Assembly (NCBI GenBank): GCA_015058065.1
Contig: SVDB01000001.1
Span: 1-60,248, forward strand
Source of the DNA: Clostridiales bacterium
GTDB lineage: Bacteria; Bacillota; Clostridia; Peptostreptococcales; Anaerovoracaceae
Reading direction: 5' to 3'
Length of the DNA: 60,248 nt
Position 1 is the stretch's first letter. Every line of letters begins with the position of its first letter. Positions 18,305 through 60,248 of this stretch are shown here, piece by piece. The notes under the pieces are model-generated. The model was not told the origin of the DNA. It worked only from the letters and a program-made list of their open reading frames with translations, and ran no database searches. The translations under genes and the position numbers were made by a program.

Positions 18305-18341
18305 ATAAAAAAGCGGGCTGCCTCGCAAACCGGCAGCCCGG
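18305..18341 (-). terminator. terminator or attenuator hairpin 45 nt upstream of the symporter start
   Basis: The minus strand reads CGGGCUGCC-9 nt-GGCAGCCCG then CUUUUUUAU. It lies ~85 nt after the preceding stop codon. Confidence 0.65.
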
Positions 18342-18424
18342 CCCCGTTTGTTGGGTGTATTTTACCAAATGGTTCGGACGCTTGTCCATAAAATAAATCG
18401 ATTTTGTATAATTGTATACAATCA

Positions 18425-18748
18425 TTAAGAGAGCGGTACAACGCAGCACACAGGCGCGGGTTTTATGCCGTCCAGTTCAAACTTTTCGATCCATGGATAG
18501 CGCTCGTACCTGATCGCAGCGCCGTCTTCGATCAGCACCCCATGCATCGGCACGTAGACTGCTCCTATCTGTGACTCTTCGCGTATGTACCCGCCCGGGT
18601 CGTCCGGTCCTTCTTCGCCGGTAAAACTTACCGACACCTCCGCCTTGGAGGGATCACATCAAGTGCGCGCGTCATCCGTCAGAAGCACTATGTCGCTGTA
18701 GCCCAGACGCTTCATGTATTCAATTGCCGCGTCATTGAGTCTTATCAT
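18425..18748 (-). CDS. candidate small selenoprotein (UGA read as Sec at 18659-18661; U-C motif)
   Basis: ATG 18748 lies 1 nt after the ProX-like stop. There are 29 codons, then TGA, then 77 more in-frame codons to TAA at 18425. SECIS-like hairpins lie at 18655-18633 and 18635-18617. The track reports only the distal 70 aa from an internal GTG. Confidence 0.5.
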
Positions 18749-18749
18749 T

Positions 18750-19238
18750 TTACATCTTCACGAAATGCAGTTCGTTGCCGTGTTTTTTGATCAGTTTGAC
18801 CACATCTCTGGTATTGATATAAACCGTCGCGGTGTTATCGCAAGGATGTATGCCCATCAGTTTGTTTTCGAAGTCCTTGTCGAAATATACGACAACGTCC
18901 TTCTCTTCGTTTGCCAGGATGCCCAGCGGCGTCACCGCTCCGCGGATGAGGCCCATCTTTTCCATGAGGTCTTCTTCCGAAGCGAAAGTGAGCGGGCGGG
19001 TATCATGTTCCTTGCGGAACTCCTTGAGATTTACCTTTTTGTCTTCAAGGCACGTGATGAGATAGTACTTGCGCTTCTTGTCATCGCGCACGAAGAGATT
19101 CTTGGCGATCTGCTCAGGATGAGGCAGGCCGCACTCGAGCATCTCGTCTATCGTGTAGACAGGCTTGTGTTCGACTATTTCGTATTTGATCTTGCTGCTG
19201 TCGAGCAGTTTGACTATGTCTTCTTTCGTAAGTGTCAT
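18750..19238 (-). CDS. YbaK/ProX-type aminoacyl-tRNA editing domain protein
   Basis: 162 aa. The pattern KNLFVRDDKKRKYYLI...GAVTPLG is typical of prolyl-tRNA synthetase-associated domain proteins. Confidence 0.75.
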   Translation of the reverse strand: MTLTKEDIVKLLDSSKIKYEIVEHKPVYTIDEMLECGLPHPEQIAKNLFVRDDKKRKYYLITCLEDKKVNLKEFRKEHDTRPLTFASEEDLMEKMGLIRGAVTPLGILANEEKDVVVYFDKDFENKLMGIHPCDNTATVYINTRDVVKLIKKHGNELHFVKM

Positions 19239-24178: not shown

Positions 24179-24427
24179 TTACAGGTTTTTGGCCTTATAG
24201 ATCTGTGTATAGCTGCCGTCGTCATTGCAGATGACCATCTGCTCCATCTCATCGTGGGCAGGGTCAAAAAGCGGCTCCGGCGCGCTGTATCTGACGCAGG
24301 TGCCGCAGCTGCTGCTGAGGCTTCTCGGAACTGGCATGGTACGCGCCTCAAGGCCTTTGGATTTGCAAAGACGTTCGAATCTTATCGATCCGAAATGCAT
24401 GAAAAATGTAGCGATATATGTATTCAT
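24179..24427 (-). CDS. DUF3343 (putative Se/S carrier-like) protein
   Basis: The pattern YIATFFMHFGSIRFERLCKSKGL...PVPRSLSSSCGTCVRY matches the DUF3343 family. ATG 24427 is preferred because TTG 24445 lies inside the upstream terminator stem. Confidence 0.7.
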   Translation of the reverse strand: MNTYIATFFMHFGSIRFERLCKSKGLEARTMPVPRSLSSSCGTCVRYSAPEPLFDPAHDEMEQMVICNDDGSYTQIYKAKNL

Positions 24428-24443
24428 AGCGTCAGTATAGCAC

Positions 24444-24470
24444 AAAACCGGGGGTGATTCCCCCGGTTTT
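24444..24470 (-). terminator. rho-independent terminator after the tusA-like gene
   Basis: AAAACCGGGGG-aatca-CCCCCGGTTTT forms a perfect 11-bp palindromic stem with A/T runs on both sides. Confidence 0.8.
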
Positions 24471-24482
24471 AGTACTATTATG

Positions 24483-24683
24483 TTACTTCGAGATCTTGAG
24501 CAGATACTCTCCGCCCTTGTCTTCTACCTCTACCTTGTAACCCTGGCTCTGGGCATAACGCGTAACGTTTTCGAGAGGAGCCTGAGCGTCTACCATGACT
24601 TCATAGTAGTTCTCTTTGCTCTTCATTGCCTTCTGAGTCATGATCACAGGCATCGGGCAGGACAGCCCTCTTGCGTCTACCAT
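24483..24683 (-). CDS. TusA/SirA-like sulfurtransferase
   Basis: 66 aa with the CPxP active-site motif in RGLSCPMPV. Confidence 0.8.
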   Translation of the reverse strand: MVDARGLSCPMPVIMTQKAMKSKENYYEVMVDAQAPLENVTRYAQSQGYKVEVEDKGGEYLLKISK

Positions 24684-24701
24684 AATGCACCTCCGCTTTT
24701 T

Positions 24702-25784
24702 TTAAGCAGCTTCCTTTGCAGGTTCCTTCTCCTTGACGTATGTGTTGACAACGCCGATGAGAGCAACTACTACGATGCCGATGATAACAGCGATCTTGCC
24801 TGCAGGTGTAGGGCCTTCGCCGCTCGAAGCGAGTCCGAAGTTGTGGCAGAAAGCAGCACCGACCATGAGGCCGAGAACTGTTACAGCGCTGTCAGCGTTT
24901 CCTTCACCGGACATAACGAGCTGTCTGAGCGGGCATCCGCCGAGCAGTACGCAAGCGAATCCGACGAGGAGCATGCCGAGGCAGTTCCAGAGTCCGTCTG
25001 TGTGAGCGATAGGCTGCTCAGTAAATCCGAGCTTGAATCCGCCGAGTACCAGGTTGGTTACCAGAGCGGAAGCGAGGATAGCGATGAATCCCCAGAGAAG
25101 TCTTGTCTCTTTGAAGAGAACGAGGTCTCTCATACCGCCGACCATGCACAGTCTTGTTCTCTGAGCAAGGACACCGACGATGAGTCCGGCAGCGAGGGAA
25201 AGACCGATCGCAGCGTGCATCGAGCCAGGACCTTCTTCAGAGAAAGCGATGTATGCAGGCTTCGCGAGAAGCAGTACGAAGATAACTACCTCGAGTACAG
25301 GCATCCAGTAACCTTCACCTGCTGTCAGGCTGTATGTTCTCTTGAGCGAGTATCCGTTCTTGAGGAAGAAGATTCCGCAGAAGATACCAATTACGAATCC
25401 GACGAGTCCGAGGAGAGCGTTCAGGTCTCCGCCGGCCAGTCTCAGGATCATCCTGAACGGGCAGCCGAGGAACATAAGGCATCCTACCATCGCGAAGAAT
25501 CCGAGAACGAATCTTGTCATAGGAGCGGAACCGCCCTTGGAGCTGAACTCCTTCTTTGCGAACGCGGCTACGAACGCGCCGATCACGATACCGATGATCT
25601 CAGGTCTGATGTACTGTACCGGAGGTGCCTTGTGAAGTCCGAGGCCGCCGGCTGTATCACGCAGGAAGCATGCGATGCAGAATCCCATGTTCTTCGGGTT
25701 TCCGAGGAACGCGAGACCGGCTGCGATGATACCGATCACGAGACCCGCGATGATGATCATTAGCTTATCATTTTTCTTTTCCAT
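24702..25784 (-). CDS. yedE: YedE-family putative selenium/sulfur-compound transporter
   Basis: Polytopic YeeE/YedE pattern with paired Cys sites (GFCIACFLRD; LGGCPLR). ATG 25784 follows GGAGGATCAAT. The track start at 25871 is an upstream extension through the leader. Confidence 0.75.
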   Translation of the reverse strand: MEKKNDKLMIIIAGLVIGIIAAGLAFLGNPKNMGFCIACFLRDTAGGLGLHKAPPVQYIRPEIIGIVIGAFVAAFAKKEFSSKGGSAPMTRFVLGFFAMVGCLMFLGCPFRMILRLAGGDLNALLGLVGFVIGIFCGIFFLKNGYSLKRTYSLTAGEGYWMPVLEVVIFVLLLAKPAYIAFSEEGPGSMHAAIGLSLAAGLIVGVLAQRTRLCMVGGMRDLVLFKETRLLWGFIAILASALVTNLVLGGFKLGFTEQPIAHTDGLWNCLGMLLVGFACVLLGGCPLRQLVMSGEGNADSAVTVLGLMVGAAFCHNFGLASSGEGPTPAGKIAVIIGIVVVALIGVVNTYVKEKEPAKEAA

Positions 25785-25819
25785 ATTGATCCTCCATATA
25801 ATCCATATTGAAAAGTCCC

Positions 25820-25852
25820 AAAAATAACGTATGAGGCGGTCTCCCGCCTCAT
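25820..25852 (-). terminator. terminator or attenuator hairpin ~45 nt upstream of yedE
   Basis: The minus strand reads AUGAGGCGG-gaga-CCGCCUCAU then ACGUUAUUUUU. It lies ~120 nt downstream of the PAP2 stop. Confidence 0.55.
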
Positions 25853-25970
25853 AATAGTTTACATTCATCACCGCTCAATAACCAATTGACTGACTTGATT
25901 GAGCGTTAACGCATTATTGATTTCCTCTATAACGCCTGCCGCTATTTTCCCTTCCGTCAAATAGCACGGC

Positions 25971-41222: not shown

Positions 41223-41639
41223 TTATAGGTTTTTGACGTCGATCGTCCTGAATCCGTTCTCAATGAGCATCGAAGCGAATATGCCCGATCCGTCGGTCAG
41301 CCTGCCCGAGAATGTACCGTCATAGATCCTGCCTACTCCGCATGACGGACTTCGCGACTGGAGTATCGCAAGATCTATCTGTTTCTCGCGGGCGAGTTTG
41401 AGACAGATCGAAGCGCCGTCCCTGAATTCCCTGTCCTTGTTTTCGCCGGCTTTGTTCATTACCACGCCGTCCACTATTTCGCAAGGGATGCGCGGCGTTT
41501 CGAGGCCGCCTGCCACTTCAGGACAAACCGGTATCACTTCATGACCTTCAGTAAAGGCCAATACCTTTTCGCTGTAATTGTCTCCGCCGTTGTATTTGCA
41601 TTTCTGCCCTAAAAGACAGGCGCTCACCATTATTTTCAT
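41223..41639 (-). CDS. DUF523 protein (TudS-like thiouracil desulfidase family)
   Basis: VSACLLGQKCKYNGG and PVCPEVAGGLETPR Cys motifs. The ATGA overlaps the upstream gene. Confidence 0.75.
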   Translation of the reverse strand: MKIMVSACLLGQKCKYNGGDNYSEKVLAFTEGHEVIPVCPEVAGGLETPRIPCEIVDGVVMNKAGENKDREFRDGASICLKLAREKQIDLAILQSRSPSCGVGRIYDGTFSGRLTDGSGIFASMLIENGFRTIDVKNL

Positions 41640-54100: not shown

Positions 54101-54937
54101 CTAGAGCTCTATCGTTTCGGTTTTTATCTCTTTATCATGACTGCAAAGAACAGCTGCACATGCAGTGTCATTTGCTTCCTTTGCGACCCAGCGCAGAGTT
54201 TTGAATTGCAGTGCCGGATCAGCGGCGAATCCCGGTGCTTCCATCTTTTCCCAGCTGCGCGGAGATACGGCAGCGTCCGAAGCCAGAAGCACATACCTCT
54301 CTTTATTTCTGACAATGACTCCGCAAAGCCCGTCTGTATGCCCCGGCATATTCACCATCATGATGCTGCCGTCACCTGTGATATCTATGGCTTTGTTCAT
54401 CGGGCCAAGCAGATGGCCTCTGAAGAACACTCTTTCCGCACCCTCTACATCCCATAGCTGCTCCGGCTGTCTGATACGGTATTTCGTCCTTACCGACCAG
54501 TATGCTTCATCCTCAGGTATCACTATCCTCTTTGCCCGGCTCACCGATCTGAGTCCCGAAACATGATCCGGATCAAGATGTGTAATGAGCACTGCGTCTA
54601 TATCTTCCTGCCTTATACCCATGGATCTCAGCTGTTCATCCACTGCCATGCCCGCAGGTACGTATGGCCTGTACAGCGCGGCCAGGTGCGCGGGCAGAAC
54701 GCTTTTTACAGCTTTGGGATCATAGACTCCATCCGGACTGATATCTCTGCTCCAGCCTGTATCCACAAGAAAAAGCCCTGCCGGATGCTCTATCAGATAT
54801 GAAAACACCGGGAGTGTTACCCGTTTGCGATCGGGAGCCATAACGGCTTTCCGGAAGCCAGTCATTATACTGCCGCCGCCGTACGGCAGATCCTCATGTA
54901 TTCTTATGAACCCGCAATTCAGTATGTGTATTTTCAC
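54101..54937 (-). CDS. MBL-fold metallo-hydrolase
   Basis: THLDPDHVSG (HxHxDH-type motif variant) and downstream His/Asp ligands. The GTG start overlaps the upstream TGA (GTGA). Confidence 0.8.
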   Translation of the reverse strand: MKIHILNCGFIRIHEDLPYGGGSIMTGFRKAVMAPDRKRVTLPVFSYLIEHPAGLFLVDTGWSRDISPDGVYDPKAVKSVLPAHLAALYRPYVPAGMAVDEQLRSMGIRQEDIDAVLITHLDPDHVSGLRSVSRAKRIVIPEDEAYWSVRTKYRIRQPEQLWDVEGAERVFFRGHLLGPMNKAIDITGDGSIMMVNMPGHTDGLCGVIVRNKERYVLLASDAAVSPRSWEKMEAPGFAADPALQFKTLRWVAKEANDTACAAVLCSHDKEIKTETIEL

Positions 54938-55833
54938 AGCAACTTAAGTCCTTTTGTCATAAGCAGGAGTCCCAGGGTGACTATCAGCACCGTGCTGACT
55001 CTCGTGATGTACTTATTATACCTCTTCGGAATGAATTTCCCGAACATTCCGAAAAAGATCATGAGCACGCATGTCCCCATTCCGAATGCGAACATCGAAG
55101 CAGCCCCGGATCTCCAGGAGCCGGAGGCAGCAGCAAACATCCACATAGCCGTCAGCGCTCCGCATGGCATCAGTCCCGTGAGCAGCCCTACAATGACGGG
55201 TCCTCCTCTGAATCTGCATGGCTTTGTCAGTTGAGGGCTGATGCGCCTCAGGAACGGAACGCCCCACATCATAAGTCCGATGATGACAACAAGCAGCCCG
55301 CACATCGTTAGAAGCATGCTTTTGAATTCCGTATCATAGCTAATCACCGTCCCCATGGCGCCGAATACTGCACCGACAATGGTATAACTTATGAGCCTTG
55401 TCCCATTGTACATCAGCGCATTGTTCTGAGTGAGCATTATGCCTCCGCACATGCCTATGCAATGCGCGCCTGTAAGAACACCTATCATGAATAGCAGTCC
55501 AAAGGATGCTCCCCGCTCTGCCTGCGGGATATCTACCATACCGGTAATGACCGGGACAGCAAAATACAGCAGCACTACCGCCGCTGCAGAAATGATGTCT
55601 GACCTTATCCCGCTCTTTCCTTCTCCTGCGGGATAACCGATATCCGACAGTTTCTTTTCTATGCTTTCAGCGCTTATGATATCCGGAGCATACTGAACTA
55701 TGACTTCGCTTTTTCTGTAGCTTGCGTCAGCAGAAAGTACTCCGCGCATGTGTATCAGCGCCTGTGCGATCTCATCCTCGCACTGAGGACAAATCATGCC
55801 GTCGACTCTTTTTCTGAAGGTTTCTCTATCCAT
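54934..55833 (-). CDS. HMA-domain protein fused to a DsbD_2/TauE-like six-TM membrane domain
   Basis: The N-terminal ferredoxin-like HMA domain has GMICPQCE. The membrane part has GAHCIGMCGG. ATG 55833 overlaps the ATPase stop by 8 nt. Confidence 0.7.
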   Translation of the reverse strand: MDRETFRKRVDGMICPQCEDEIAQALIHMRGVLSADASYRKSEVIVQYAPDIISAESIEKKLSDIGYPAGEGKSGIRSDIISAAAVVLLYFAVPVITGMVDIPQAERGASFGLLFMIGVLTGAHCIGMCGGIMLTQNNALMYNGTRLISYTIVGAVFGAMGTVISYDTEFKSMLLTMCGLLVVIIGLMMWGVPFLRRISPQLTKPCRFRGGPVIVGLLTGLMPCGALTAMWMFAAASGSWRSGAASMFAFGMGTCVLMIFFGMFGKFIPKRYNKYITRVSTVLIVTLGLLLMTKGLKLL

Positions 55834-57466
55834 CAACCGCATCCTTCCTCTCAAGCTTTCTTATTCTCAGAGAGTTAAGCAGTACTCCGTTTGAGCTAAG
55901 AGCCATTGCCGCGGCAGCTATTGATGGATTGACGATGCCTGCTGCCGCCAGCGGTATGCATATCACGTTATATATGACCGCCCATGTCAGGTTCTGCCGT
56001 ATGTTCCTTACGGTTTCCCTTGACATACTGAACACGAGAGGCAGCGCGCTGATGTTGCTTCCTGCGATCATCACATCCGCCGCATCGATCGCTATATCGG
56101 TCCCGGTGCCCATGGCTATGCCTGTATCTGCGCAGACCAGAGCAGGAGAATCGTTTATGCCGTCTCCTACCATTGCTATAGTCCGCCCTTCGCTTTGGAG
56201 TTTTCTGATGATGTCGGCTTTGTCTGCCGGCTTGACCTCATACACGACCTTCTCCGGTCCGATGCCCAGCTTCATGGCGGCCGTCTTTGCTTTGGCCTCC
56301 TTGTCGCCGCTTATCATGAACACATCCATGCCGCTCTCCTTAAGAGCTGCGACCATTTCTTCAGCGCCGGGTCTGAGCATCTCATCTTCACCCTCCACGG
56401 TCAGCCCCATGGTGAGCGTTCCCGTTTTATCGAATACGATGGTGTCAGTCTTATAAGCGTTCTCAAGCTGCTCTCCTCCTCGAAACAGAATGCCGAGCTC
56501 TGCTGCCCTCCCTGATCCTGTCATTATCGAAGTCGGCGTTGCAAGGCCAAGAGCGCACGGGCACGCGATCACAAGAGTCGAACAAAGACAGGACACAGCC
56601 TGCCCCATGTTTCCCGGGTCGATCACCCAGTACCAGAGGCAAAAGATTCCTGCGGATATCAAAGTCACTACCGGCACGAATACTGTTGCGATCCTGTCCG
56701 CGAGTCTGGCTATCGGCGCCTTTTCATTCTGAGCGTTGCTTACGATATCTATTATTTGCGCGAGCATCGTTTTCTTTGAGATGTCCTCGCATGAGATCTC
56801 AGCGTGTCCCTCTCTTACCAGCGTGCCGCAATACAGTATATCGCCCGCACCCTTGAACACCGATTCGCTTTCGCCCGTCAGCATGGATTCATCTGTCATA
56901 CACGAGCCTGAAATGATCCTTCCGTCGACCGGTATGTGATCACCGGCTCTGACTGGAATGACATCTGCCTCTGTCAGTTCACTTATCTGTACCTCTGTTT
57001 CTTTTCCCTCACGCAGTACAAATGCTGTTTCCGGTCTGAGTCTTATGAGCCTGCGGATCGCAGCGGAAGCTTCATATCTTGAAGTTGTCTCCATGTACTT
57101 TCCGAAAAGGATCAGCGACAAAAGCACGCATTCCGAAAGGAAATATACTTTAGTATTCTGATGTACAGTGAAAGTGACATATGCGCTGTAAAGGTAGATT
57201 ATCGTAGTCGAAAGAGCTACCAGAAAATCCATTCCCAGAACGCCTTCCTTGAGTGATCTGTACGCACCTCTGTAGAAGTAAGATCCCGGCCAGAACTGAA
57301 CGGCGGTAGCGAACAAGAGCTGTATAAGAGGCCTCATGCCCCACATTAGGGGCATGGTAAGAAGGACGCTCGCGCAGAGCGTCCTTAGAAGCTTCATCCG
57401 CTGATGTATATCACTTTCCTCATCCCCGCAGGCCGGGCATGATATATACAGATCTGACGGATCCAC
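55826..57466 (-). CDS. P1B-type (heavy-metal) ATPase homolog lacking the nucleotide-binding N-domain and the N-terminal HMA domain
   Basis: TGES (aa 197-200), CPC (aa 302-304), DKTGT (aa 346-350), SGD (aa 386-388), GDGIND (aa 434-439). Only ~35 aa separate DKTGT from SGD. GTG start lies 1 nt after the upstream TAA. Confidence 0.8.
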   Translation of the reverse strand: MDPSDLYISCPACGDEESDIHQRMKLLRTLCASVLLTMPLMWGMRPLIQLLFATAVQFWPGSYFYRGAYRSLKEGVLGMDFLVALSTTIIYLYSAYVTFTVHQNTKVYFLSECVLLSLILFGKYMETTSRYEASAAIRRLIRLRPETAFVLREGKETEVQISELTEADVIPVRAGDHIPVDGRIISGSCMTDESMLTGESESVFKGAGDILYCGTLVREGHAEISCEDISKKTMLAQIIDIVSNAQNEKAPIARLADRIATVFVPVVTLISAGIFCLWYWVIDPGNMGQAVSCLCSTLVIACPCALGLATPTSIMTGSGRAAELGILFRGGEQLENAYKTDTIVFDKTGTLTMGLTVEGEDEMLRPGAEEMVAALKESGMDVFMISGDKEAKAKTAAMKLGIGPEKVVYEVKPADKADIIRKLQSEGRTIAMVGDGINDSPALVCADTGIAMGTGTDIAIDAADVMIAGSNISALPLVFSMSRETVRNIRQNLTWAVIYNVICIPLAAAGIVNPSIAAAAMALSSNGVLLNSLRIRKLERKDAVDG

Positions 57467-57467
57467 C

Positions 57468-57971
57468 TTATCTACCTTCTTTCAATTTCTTATACTGTTG
57501 CCAACACTTCCACGAGCAAGGCAGGCAAAATACAGGGATGTGGAACAGGAGCACCCAGCTGAGCCAGTCGACACCCTGATAATACGCTCCGTTATAAGTC
57601 ACGCCTTTCATCAGATCAAAGTATGAGAAGTTCCATACTCCCCAGTTACCCGTGAACGATCCACACAGATGGAGAATCAGGAATGATGCTGTCGTAAAGA
57701 CTCCTGCTACCGAGCCGACTATGCTGGCCGAAGGTCTGCCGCTTTTTGCCAGGAAAAGTGTGATGACCGGCAGCACATAAACAGTCAGATTGAGCACCCA
57801 AAGCGAGATAGGTATCGAGTATCCCCAATTGAGCGCCTGACGGATGTGATCGCCGTCATGAACAAGTATGGCGATGATCATAATGATCGAGCATGTAGTG
57901 ATGGTTTTCGCTATGTCCGCAGGCATCCTTTTGTCGAGAAATCCTGCAGTTTTTTCTTCTCTTCTGGACAT
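57468..57971 (-). CDS. hypothetical four-TM membrane protein, first gene of the ATPase operon
   Basis: 167 aa with GGAGG RBS. It has an HDGDH motif after TM1 and a C-terminal CLPCSWKC. I recognise no family. Confidence 0.55.
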   Translation of the reverse strand: MSRREEKTAGFLDKRMPADIAKTITTCSIIMIIAILVHDGDHIRQALNWGYSIPISLWVLNLTVYVLPVITLFLAKSGRPSASIVGSVAGVFTTASFLILHLCGSFTGNWGVWNFSYFDLMKGVTYNGAYYQGVDWLSWVLLFHIPVFCLPCSWKCWQQYKKLKEGR

Positions 57972-60195: not shown

Positions 60196-60248
60196 ATTTG
60201 TAGGAACGCGGATTTACCCGTATACTGAAGTTGCAACCACACAACTCA

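Follow-up and report, generated by a model that had tools for sequence, protein, structure and literature searches.

In the A-type iron-sulfur carrier IscA, the cluster ligands are Cys35, which follows strand 2, and Cys99 and Cys101 at the disordered C-terminus. Vicinal chalcogen centres are found in the C-terminal GCUG of mammalian thioredoxin reductase and in the C-terminal Cys-Cys of MerA. The A-type carriers IscA, SufA and HesB are described by PF01521, and the HesB-like selenoprotein family, which has the motif UxGP, by TIGR01911. In anaerobes, the HesB-like proteins form an established family with Sec or Cys (PMC1794560), and SaoC and SaoL are selenoproteins with a CU motif (PMC13188914). 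The CC/Se family is likewise listed as a selenoprotein, with the motif CxxU, and was first predicted in Moorella thermoacetica (PMC13188914, Table 1). Bacterial SECIS (bSECIS) elements are recognised by a loop of 3-9 nt, a stem of 4-16 bp and a G as the first or second loop nucleotide, with 16-37 nt from the UGA to the loop and a minimum free energy (MFE) of -7.5 kcal/mol or lower (PMC13188914).

Here, we analysed a 60,248-nt stretch of DNA from a Clostridiales bacterium (the window). Judging from its sequence and that of its relatives, the segment 18748-18425 is very probably a genuine selenoprotein gene in which the TGA at codon 30 is read as selenocysteine.

An in-frame TGA conserved in a rumen and gut lineage

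An earlier note on this DNA had joined two short ORFs across an in-frame TGA into a single frame of 107 codons. We confirmed the coordinates, and our translation was identical to that of the note. The minus-strand frame opens with ATG at 18748-18746, reaches TGA at 18661-18659 and then stays open to TAA at 18427-18425. The 70-aa ORF that the note had traced to an internal GTG was also confirmed, with its start at 18637. The parts of the frame are as follows.

18425 to 18748, minus strand: predicted selenoprotein gene, complete, 107 codons plus the TAA stop
18746 to 18748, minus strand: ATG start codon, 1 nt past the TAA of the upstream gene (18752-18750), with likely translational coupling
18659 to 18661, minus strand: in-frame UGA, codon 30, predicted selenocysteine codon
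18656 to 18658, minus strand: Cys31 codon UGU, vicinal partner of the predicted Sec30 (U-C motif)
18635 to 18637, minus strand: internal GTG, origin of the spurious 70-aa ORF in gene calls
18443 to 18448, minus strand: Cys101-Cys102 codons UGC UGC, a vicinal Cys pair conserved at the C-terminus

The predicted product is MIRLNDAAIEYMKRLGYSDIVLLTDDARTUCDPSKAEVSVSFTGEEG...PAPVCCVVPLS. Its predicted active-site motif is A-R-T-U-C-D-P, in which position -3 is not a Cys. Throughout alignment A6 Cys31 is invariant, and it is encoded by TGT or TGC across loci, so the residue is kept through synonymous variation. C101 and C102 are invariant in the 26 short-form rows of alignment A2, fragments included. 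In most homologous loci the start overlaps the upstream stop as ATGA; locus L005 has a spacer before the ATG, with an AGGAG Shine-Dalgarno preceding the start.

When 5.8 billion proteins were searched with the joined sequence, 27 relatives came back. These comprised 24 C-terminal fragments of about 70 residues and three full-length proteins with W at the TGA column. The DNA beneath the W residues is TGA, on short contigs that were translated with a TGA=Trp code. TGA occupied the codon-30 column in the window and throughout L001-L022, in all 21 distinct close loci; 18 of the loci are GTDB species representatives, found by scanning a single genome for each GTDB species. In that scan, close relatives were found only in rumen/gut MAGs of the Anaerovoracaceae/Mogibacterium group, all 18 being labelled Mogibacterium, Anaerovoracaceae or 'uncultured Clostridiales'. 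The codon-30 context was T-U-C-D/T-P/S in all 18 species loci and in the metagenomic loci L001-L004. Among these loci are the three long forms (L018-L020), which are about 50% identical, have 225-240 residues and carry an additional C-terminal helical domain; the terminal CC is absent from them.

Seven distant relatives also had TGA at this column (L023, L025/L026, L027, L029, L030, L031 and L032). One of these, L023 (P0039), has three TGAs on a contig of 1x coverage, and its gene model was not relied on. Because TGA lies at the identical column in every homologous locus examined, the frame arrangement is not a product of chance.

The earlier note had expected the 29 N-terminal codons to be conserved, and they evolve as coding sequence. 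Among 18 short-form sequences, divergence per site in codons 1-29 was 0.11, 0.13 and 0.45 at codon positions 1, 2 and 3, respectively, indicating that this part is translated and under purifying selection. The substitution pattern was of the coding type on both sides of the TGA.

Candidate SECIS hairpins within the coding region

A SECIS-like hairpin directly 3' of the UGA, followed by a second stem, had been proposed in the earlier note. Both hairpins exist, and they are designated H1 and H2 here.

18637 to 18651, minus strand: hairpin H1, CCUCC-AAGGC-GGAGG, 5 bp, accessory, directly 5' of H2
18616 to 18636, minus strand: hairpin H2, UGUCGGUAA-GUU-UUACCGGCG, loop at 18627-18625, predicted SECIS

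The 52 nt from the UGA onward fold into exactly H1 and H2 with an energy of -17.8 kcal/mol (z = -2.75), which was matched by 0 of 200 shuffles. The SECIS candidate is the second hairpin. H2 fits the bSECIS model throughout: its stem has 9 bp, its GUU loop follows the UGA by 31 nt, and its energy is -9.7 kcal/mol; the 3-nt loop is the smallest size that the model allows. H1 fails as a bSECIS, as its loop is only 12 nt from the UGA and starts with AA, with G at neither the first nor the second position. With the UGA at the A site, ribosome footprints would put H1 (nt +10 to +24) at least partly in the mRNA channel, and H2 would for this reason be the element free for SelB. In Rfam scans of the whole window at the gathering threshold, and of 18540-18720 at a permissive setting, no SECIS family was found, the matches being those expected by chance.

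Conservation of the downstream hairpin in orthologous loci, which the earlier note had set as a check, was found for H2, which is kept and covaries. Across 20 distinct sequences, 96.7% of H2 cells were paired, and double-sided changes occurred in five of nine pairs (13 cells). None of 500 shuffles equalled this result, and 3' partners that were slid along the sequence paired in only 23-57%. Locus L002 has a compensatory change at two synonymous sites, GUA>GUG (Val) and UUU>UUC (Phe). In the clade with CxxU motifs, compensatory H2 changes are accompanied by Val>Ala and Thr>Ala replacements. Third-position divergence was 0.20 in codons 31-46 compared to 0.45-0.49 elsewhere, in keeping with a constraint on the RNA in addition to that on the protein.

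Every Sec-encoding member has an H2 with a stem of 6-9 bp and a G-N-U loop, 28-31 nt past the UGA. The stems are clade-specific (UCGGUAA/UUACCGG, UCAGCAA/UUGCUGA, UCAACAA/UUGUUGA and UCUGUAA/UUACGGA), and in a few distant members H2 by itself is weaker than -7.5 kcal/mol. An H1 of 3-6 bp always lies directly 5' of H2 in each clade, its sequences including CUCCU/AGGAG, ACCU/AGGU and UUCA/UGAA. No stem was found at the H2 site of the Cys-Cys homolog L024 (TGC TGC), and in the recently converted Cys form L028 the H2 stem persists as a fossil.

The following model of decoding is proposed. Translation would start at the ATG, with coupling to the upstream YbaK-like gene through the stop codon of the latter, and the UGA at codon 30 would be decoded as selenocysteine. 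The ribosome would at least partly unwind H1, which is close to the UGA, leaving H2 exposed. H2 could then act as a bacterial SECIS, recruiting SelB with Sec-tRNA(Sec). As a coding-region SECIS the locus would be a clean case, in which compensatory changes fall on synonymous sites and also come with coupled amino-acid changes; it leaves the understanding of selenocysteine decoding unchanged.

Relatives with Sec or Cys and other readings of the TGA

The earlier note had expected homologs to align across the TGA column, and they do, with TGA or Cys there. An exhaustive HMMER profile search of 1.84 billion proteins found just 68 representatives at E <= 0.001. Among the relatives were a group with S-U-C-A-P-P and a CxxU group (C-N-T-U-G and C-Q-N-U), together with a T-U-C member, P0090 (L029), which has the U-C arrangement of the window inside a clade of the CxxU type. 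The Cys forms were P0083 (C-Q-N-C), matched by the window-clade profile at E 2.2e-5, and a G-C-C-S group with genuine TGC TGC codons. The exchange is seen in a pair of 95% identical proteins, in which P0095 (L027) has TGA and P0083 (L028) has TGT at the Sec column. Members of PF28096 and L024 have TGC TGC at the equivalent positions.

These Cys forms carry precomputed Pfam matches to PF28096 ('CC_Se_fam'). NF041239 aligns end to end with P0083, at 19.2 bits against a cut-off of 40. The window protein itself had no match to NF041239 even at E <= 10, nor to TIGR01911 or PF01521 at the same threshold. At E <= 0.01 and at E <= 10, the joined protein had no relevant match in Pfam or NCBIfam. PF28096 never came up in local Pfam scans, even for proteins with a precomputed PF28096 match. 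The full-length close homologs P0001 and P0002 have no precomputed match to PF28096 or other Pfam domain.

With hhalign, the window clade aligned to PF28096 members at 98% probability (E 1.4e-13) over 81 columns (residues 2-82), and in this register U30-C31 falls on C31-C32 of the PF28096 members. The last 25 or so residues, with the invariant C101-C102, could not be aligned to them. A clostridial CC or UC family, which the earlier note had named, thus does exist, as NF041239/PF28096; the window protein is only a distant homolog that the curated model misses. On this sequence evidence, the gene belongs to the CC/Se motif (seleno)protein superfamily as a distant branch that is unannotated and lies outside the curated definitions. 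It extends the superfamily past the reach of NF041239 and PF28096 and introduces a U-C variant of the active site. A literature search for Sec use in Mogibacterium or Anaerovoracaceae found nothing specific, and the Moorella protein is not discussed in the text of the GOS paper.

We also checked the genes around the locus.

18750 to 19238, minus strand: YbaK/ProX-like tRNA_edit protein (Pfam PF04073, E 1e-27), syntenic neighbour
24179 to 25871, minus strand: yedE-like, TusA and Se_S_carrier (DUF3343) genes

In 16 of 17 short-form loci the genes run in the order HerA-like ATPase, YbaK-like gene, selenoprotein gene and AgcS symporter, the YbaK-like gene being directly upstream in the same fraction. 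In L021 the selenoprotein gene directly follows HerA, and the long forms have a different location, where a MetNIQ-type transporter lies downstream of them. The YbaK-like gene was rejected as an obligate partner, as it is not beside the gene in L021 or L018-L020. The yedE/tusA/DUF3343 module, which the earlier note had taken to fit a selenium-using organism, is indeed present; it is not an obligate partner either, being absent from five gene-bearing genomes (L009 and L011-L014). The genomic context of the loci compared gave no functional clue.

Of the other readings of the TGA, read-through without selenocysteine survives best, and we consider it unlikely. Here a near-cognate Trp, Cys or Arg would be inserted, or TGA would have been reassigned in this lineage, and the hairpins would merely stimulate read-through. 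In its favour, Sec machinery was not found in the sequence examined, which comprised the 60-kb window and the locus flanks. No selA, selB or selD was among the 53 window ORFs in a Pfam sweep. ARAGORN found no tRNA-Sec (selC) in the window or in 19 loci with +/-10 kb flanks, which were scanned for tRNAs only. Past the right edge of the window there were only an IS110 transposase and dehydrogenases, and no sel gene. Some database entries show W at the column, and H1 and H2 together could in principle slow the ribosome. Against this, TGA terminates 15 of the 53 long ORFs in the window, and the genome is therefore on the standard code (code 11), without reassignment. The W in these entries stems from short contigs, in which the DNA reads TGA. 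Furthermore, the column swaps specifically with Cys, as expected for Sec, H2 has the loop G, spacing and stem of a bacterial SECIS, and the protein is homologous to the curated selenoprotein family NF041239.

Two independent genes, a 29-residue peptide ending at the TGA and a 70-residue protein from the internal GTG, are less probable still. Both ORFs exist mechanically, and a GGAGG lies just before the GTG, but it abuts the start codon with zero spacer. The seven codons from TGA to GTG are conserved across clades as protein (C-x-P-[SP]-x-x-E), with synonymous variation, and the frame is unbroken between the two parts in every locus. Cys-form homologs are single polypeptides across both parts, and an AlphaFold2 (AF2) model places both parts in one domain (pLDDT 84). 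By comparison, a pseudogene, in which the TGA marks recent inactivation of a Cys- or Trp-containing gene, would suit a locus that is split by gene callers, held in databases mainly as 70-aa fragments and without visible sel genes in the window, yet it is effectively refuted by conservation, since the TGA is shared by 18 species-level genomes and by relatives down to about 33% identity (A6), frameshifts and extra stops are absent, purifying selection flanks the TGA and no close ortholog has a sense codon at the column.

Selenocysteine at codon 30 is thus the preferred reading. Genome annotation routinely truncates selenoprotein genes, and public databases show this one in three wrong forms: 70-residue fragments, 29-residue stubs and full-length proteins with a false Trp. 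The gene would add a selenoprotein to an abundant, uncultured rumen and gut lineage.

Predicted fold and comparison with known systems

The AF2 model was built on P0001, which has W at the Sec column, with 29 aligned sequences. It has a mean pLDDT of 84 and a pTM of 0.75, and shows an N-terminal helix followed by six strands. U30/C31 lie between the strands at 19-24 and 38-43, and C101-C102 come after the last strand. Local pLDDT was 72-76 in the Sec loop and about 51 in the last eight residues (101-108). The Cys101-Cys102 tail is probably flexible, in line with the low model confidence there.

The top six PDB matches of this model in Foldseek were all IscA/SufA chains, at a probability of 1.00 and TM scores of 0.53-0.61. 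The proteins matched were IscA from E. coli and T. elongatus and SufA from E. coli, at TM scores of 0.54-0.61; for the window protein the fold is a predicted one. The conserved positions of the ligand Cys residues of IscA were confirmed. A sequence link to IscA/SufA was not found by hhalign (probability below 1%) or by a profile search of PDB sequences, and weak PF01521 matches occurred on two PF28096 members, P0092 and P0112. As no sequence-level link was found, the relation to IscA/SufA suggested by the model is a similarity of fold and not family membership. If the model is correct, the superfamily as a whole is linked to the IscA/HesB fold, which offers a first testable idea of its chemistry.

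The product would fold like an A-type Fe-S carrier (IscA/SufA/HesB), with Sec30-Cys31 at the place of the first ligand Cys of IscA and Cys101-Cys102 in a flexible tail at the C-terminus, at the place of the C-x-C of IscA. In the most likely reading of the model, Sec30 would serve a small thiol/selenol centre as its reactive or ligand residue; any specific chemistry is much less sure than the gene itself. The centre may cycle via a selenenylsulfide with Cys31 or with the C-terminal CC pair. Another option is that it binds a soft metal, an Fe-S cluster or a chalcogen and passes it on.

A further reading, which we regard as doubtful, is that of a distinct family specific to rumen and gut Anaerovoracaceae. 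It would combine an A-type carrier scaffold with a selenium-dependent Sec-Cys plus Cys-Cys centre for a metal, an Fe-S cluster or a chalcogen, and with decoding by H1 and H2 in tandem. The centre would then serve for binding or transfer rather than as a simple redox pair, and the tandem hairpins would replace the single SECIS stem-loop.

In terms of its possible chemistry, the predicted protein would resemble thioredoxin reductase, MerA and SaoC/SaoL in having an adjacent U-C and a vicinal Cys pair on a flexible tail, an analogy that does not extend to homology. The likeness to IscA (C35 and C99-x-C101) lies in a length of about 107 residues, a chalcogen in the predicted loop between strands 2 and 3 and two Cys at the extreme C-terminus. 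Unlike IscA/HesB, the window protein has U-C-D-P and not U-x-G-P or G-C-S-G, and its C-terminal Cys residues form C-C and not C-G-C.

The window protein has several features in common with the CC/Se family (NF041239 'Moor_selen_rel'/PF28096). Both have about 100-115 residues, an N-terminal helix-strand-loop-strand and a Sec/Cys column, and the Sec forms of both carry a hairpin with a G-N-U loop over a conserved Phe codon, 28-31 nt after the UGA. The window protein lies below the curated cut-off of NF041239 (40 bits) and also outside its CxxU/C-C motif definition. Its own motif is T-U-C-D-P, in contrast to the CxxU or G-C-C-S of the family, and its C-terminal third (RYEKYPWIEKFELDGIKPAPVCC), unalignable to that of the family, ends in a vicinal Cys pair of its own.

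Tryptophan and cysteine at the selenocysteine column

Full-length versions of these selenoproteins were found in public protein collections with Trp at the Sec column (P0001-P0003, P0039, P0045, P0049, P0053, P0055, P0090, P0091 and P0095). The loci concerned are L001, L023, L025-L027 and L029-L032. Inspection of the DNA of the loci showed a TGA under the false Trp in all those checked. The residue appears because short contigs were translated with a code in which TGA specifies Trp. Such translation also introduces false 'W' residues. The artefact is a convenient route to selenoprotein genes.

Tandem paralogs of the CC/Se motif superfamily lie at L029:298-597 and L029:622-918, both with an in-frame TGA. 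The motif is C-S-S-U-G (CxxU type) in one and S-N-T-U-C in the other, the latter being of the U-C type that the window protein has, and therefore both motif types coexist in one genome. Exchange of Sec for Cys was seen between L027:399-707 and L028:574-882, which share 95% protein identity and differ at one column in having TGA (L027) or TGT (L028). The 7-bp hairpin persists in the Cys form of L028, apparently a fossil SECIS left by a recent Sec-to-Cys change. In the 48-aa protein P0081, the first ~25 residues are fused directly to the C-terminal VCCIW tail; the protein has either lost its middle part by deletion or is an artefact of assembly.

Long forms of the selenoprotein

Three relatives' loci encode longer versions:

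L018:10001-10705, with L019 and L020 starting at the same position: long forms, 225-240 residues in length

These retain T-U-C-D-P-P and both hairpins, with a ~120-residue helical domain, which gave only a weak DUF7674 match, in place of the C-terminal CC tail. A MetNIQ-type ABC importer lies downstream of the long-form genes, and a Cys/Met-metabolism PLP enzyme is encoded ~5 kb from them.

Flanking and distal features of the window

The stretch that separates the selenoprotein gene from the AgcS symporter gene contains two features:

18388-18359, minus strand: promoter-like site
about 18340-18306, minus strand: GC-rich hairpin GGGCUGCC-GGUUUGCGA-GGCAGCCC, then a U-run

The hairpin and U-run could form an AgcS leader/attenuator or the upstream operon's terminator. 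Rfam returned no match for this region (about 18306-18388, minus strand).

Towards the right edge of the window are:

within 55826-57971, minus strand: P-type ATPase ORF of 546 residues (E1-E2_ATPase, Hydrolase)
54934-55854: DsbD_2/HMA protein, next after the ATPase ORF

A 167-residue ORF with no family match ends 2 nt before the start of the ATPase ORF, in a different frame, and the two may represent a frameshifted or split heavy-metal ATPase. Contigs L033-L036, which carry the window's last gene, extend past position 60248 and encode an IS110-family transposase, an esterase, an Fe-alcohol dehydrogenase and an aldo-keto reductase, the last split into two ORFs in L033.

The yedE-like module and other families with Sec forms

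Three further features were located:

24179-25871, minus strand: yedE-like (Sulf_transp), TusA and Se_S_carrier module
24480-25763, plus strand: 427-codon ORF with no family match, antisense to the yedE-like gene
41223-41639, minus strand: DUF523 / 2-thiouracil desulfurase family protein with the motif S-P-S-C-G

The module is present in the window and many relatives, yet L009 and L011-L014 keep the selenoprotein gene without it. In all likelihood the antisense ORF is a shadow ORF rather than a gene. The window YedE is a Cys form; Sec forms of the same family have GUxSG. The S-P-S-C-G protein is likewise the Cys form of its family, for which Sec forms (SxSUG) are listed in a 2026 review (PMC13188914).
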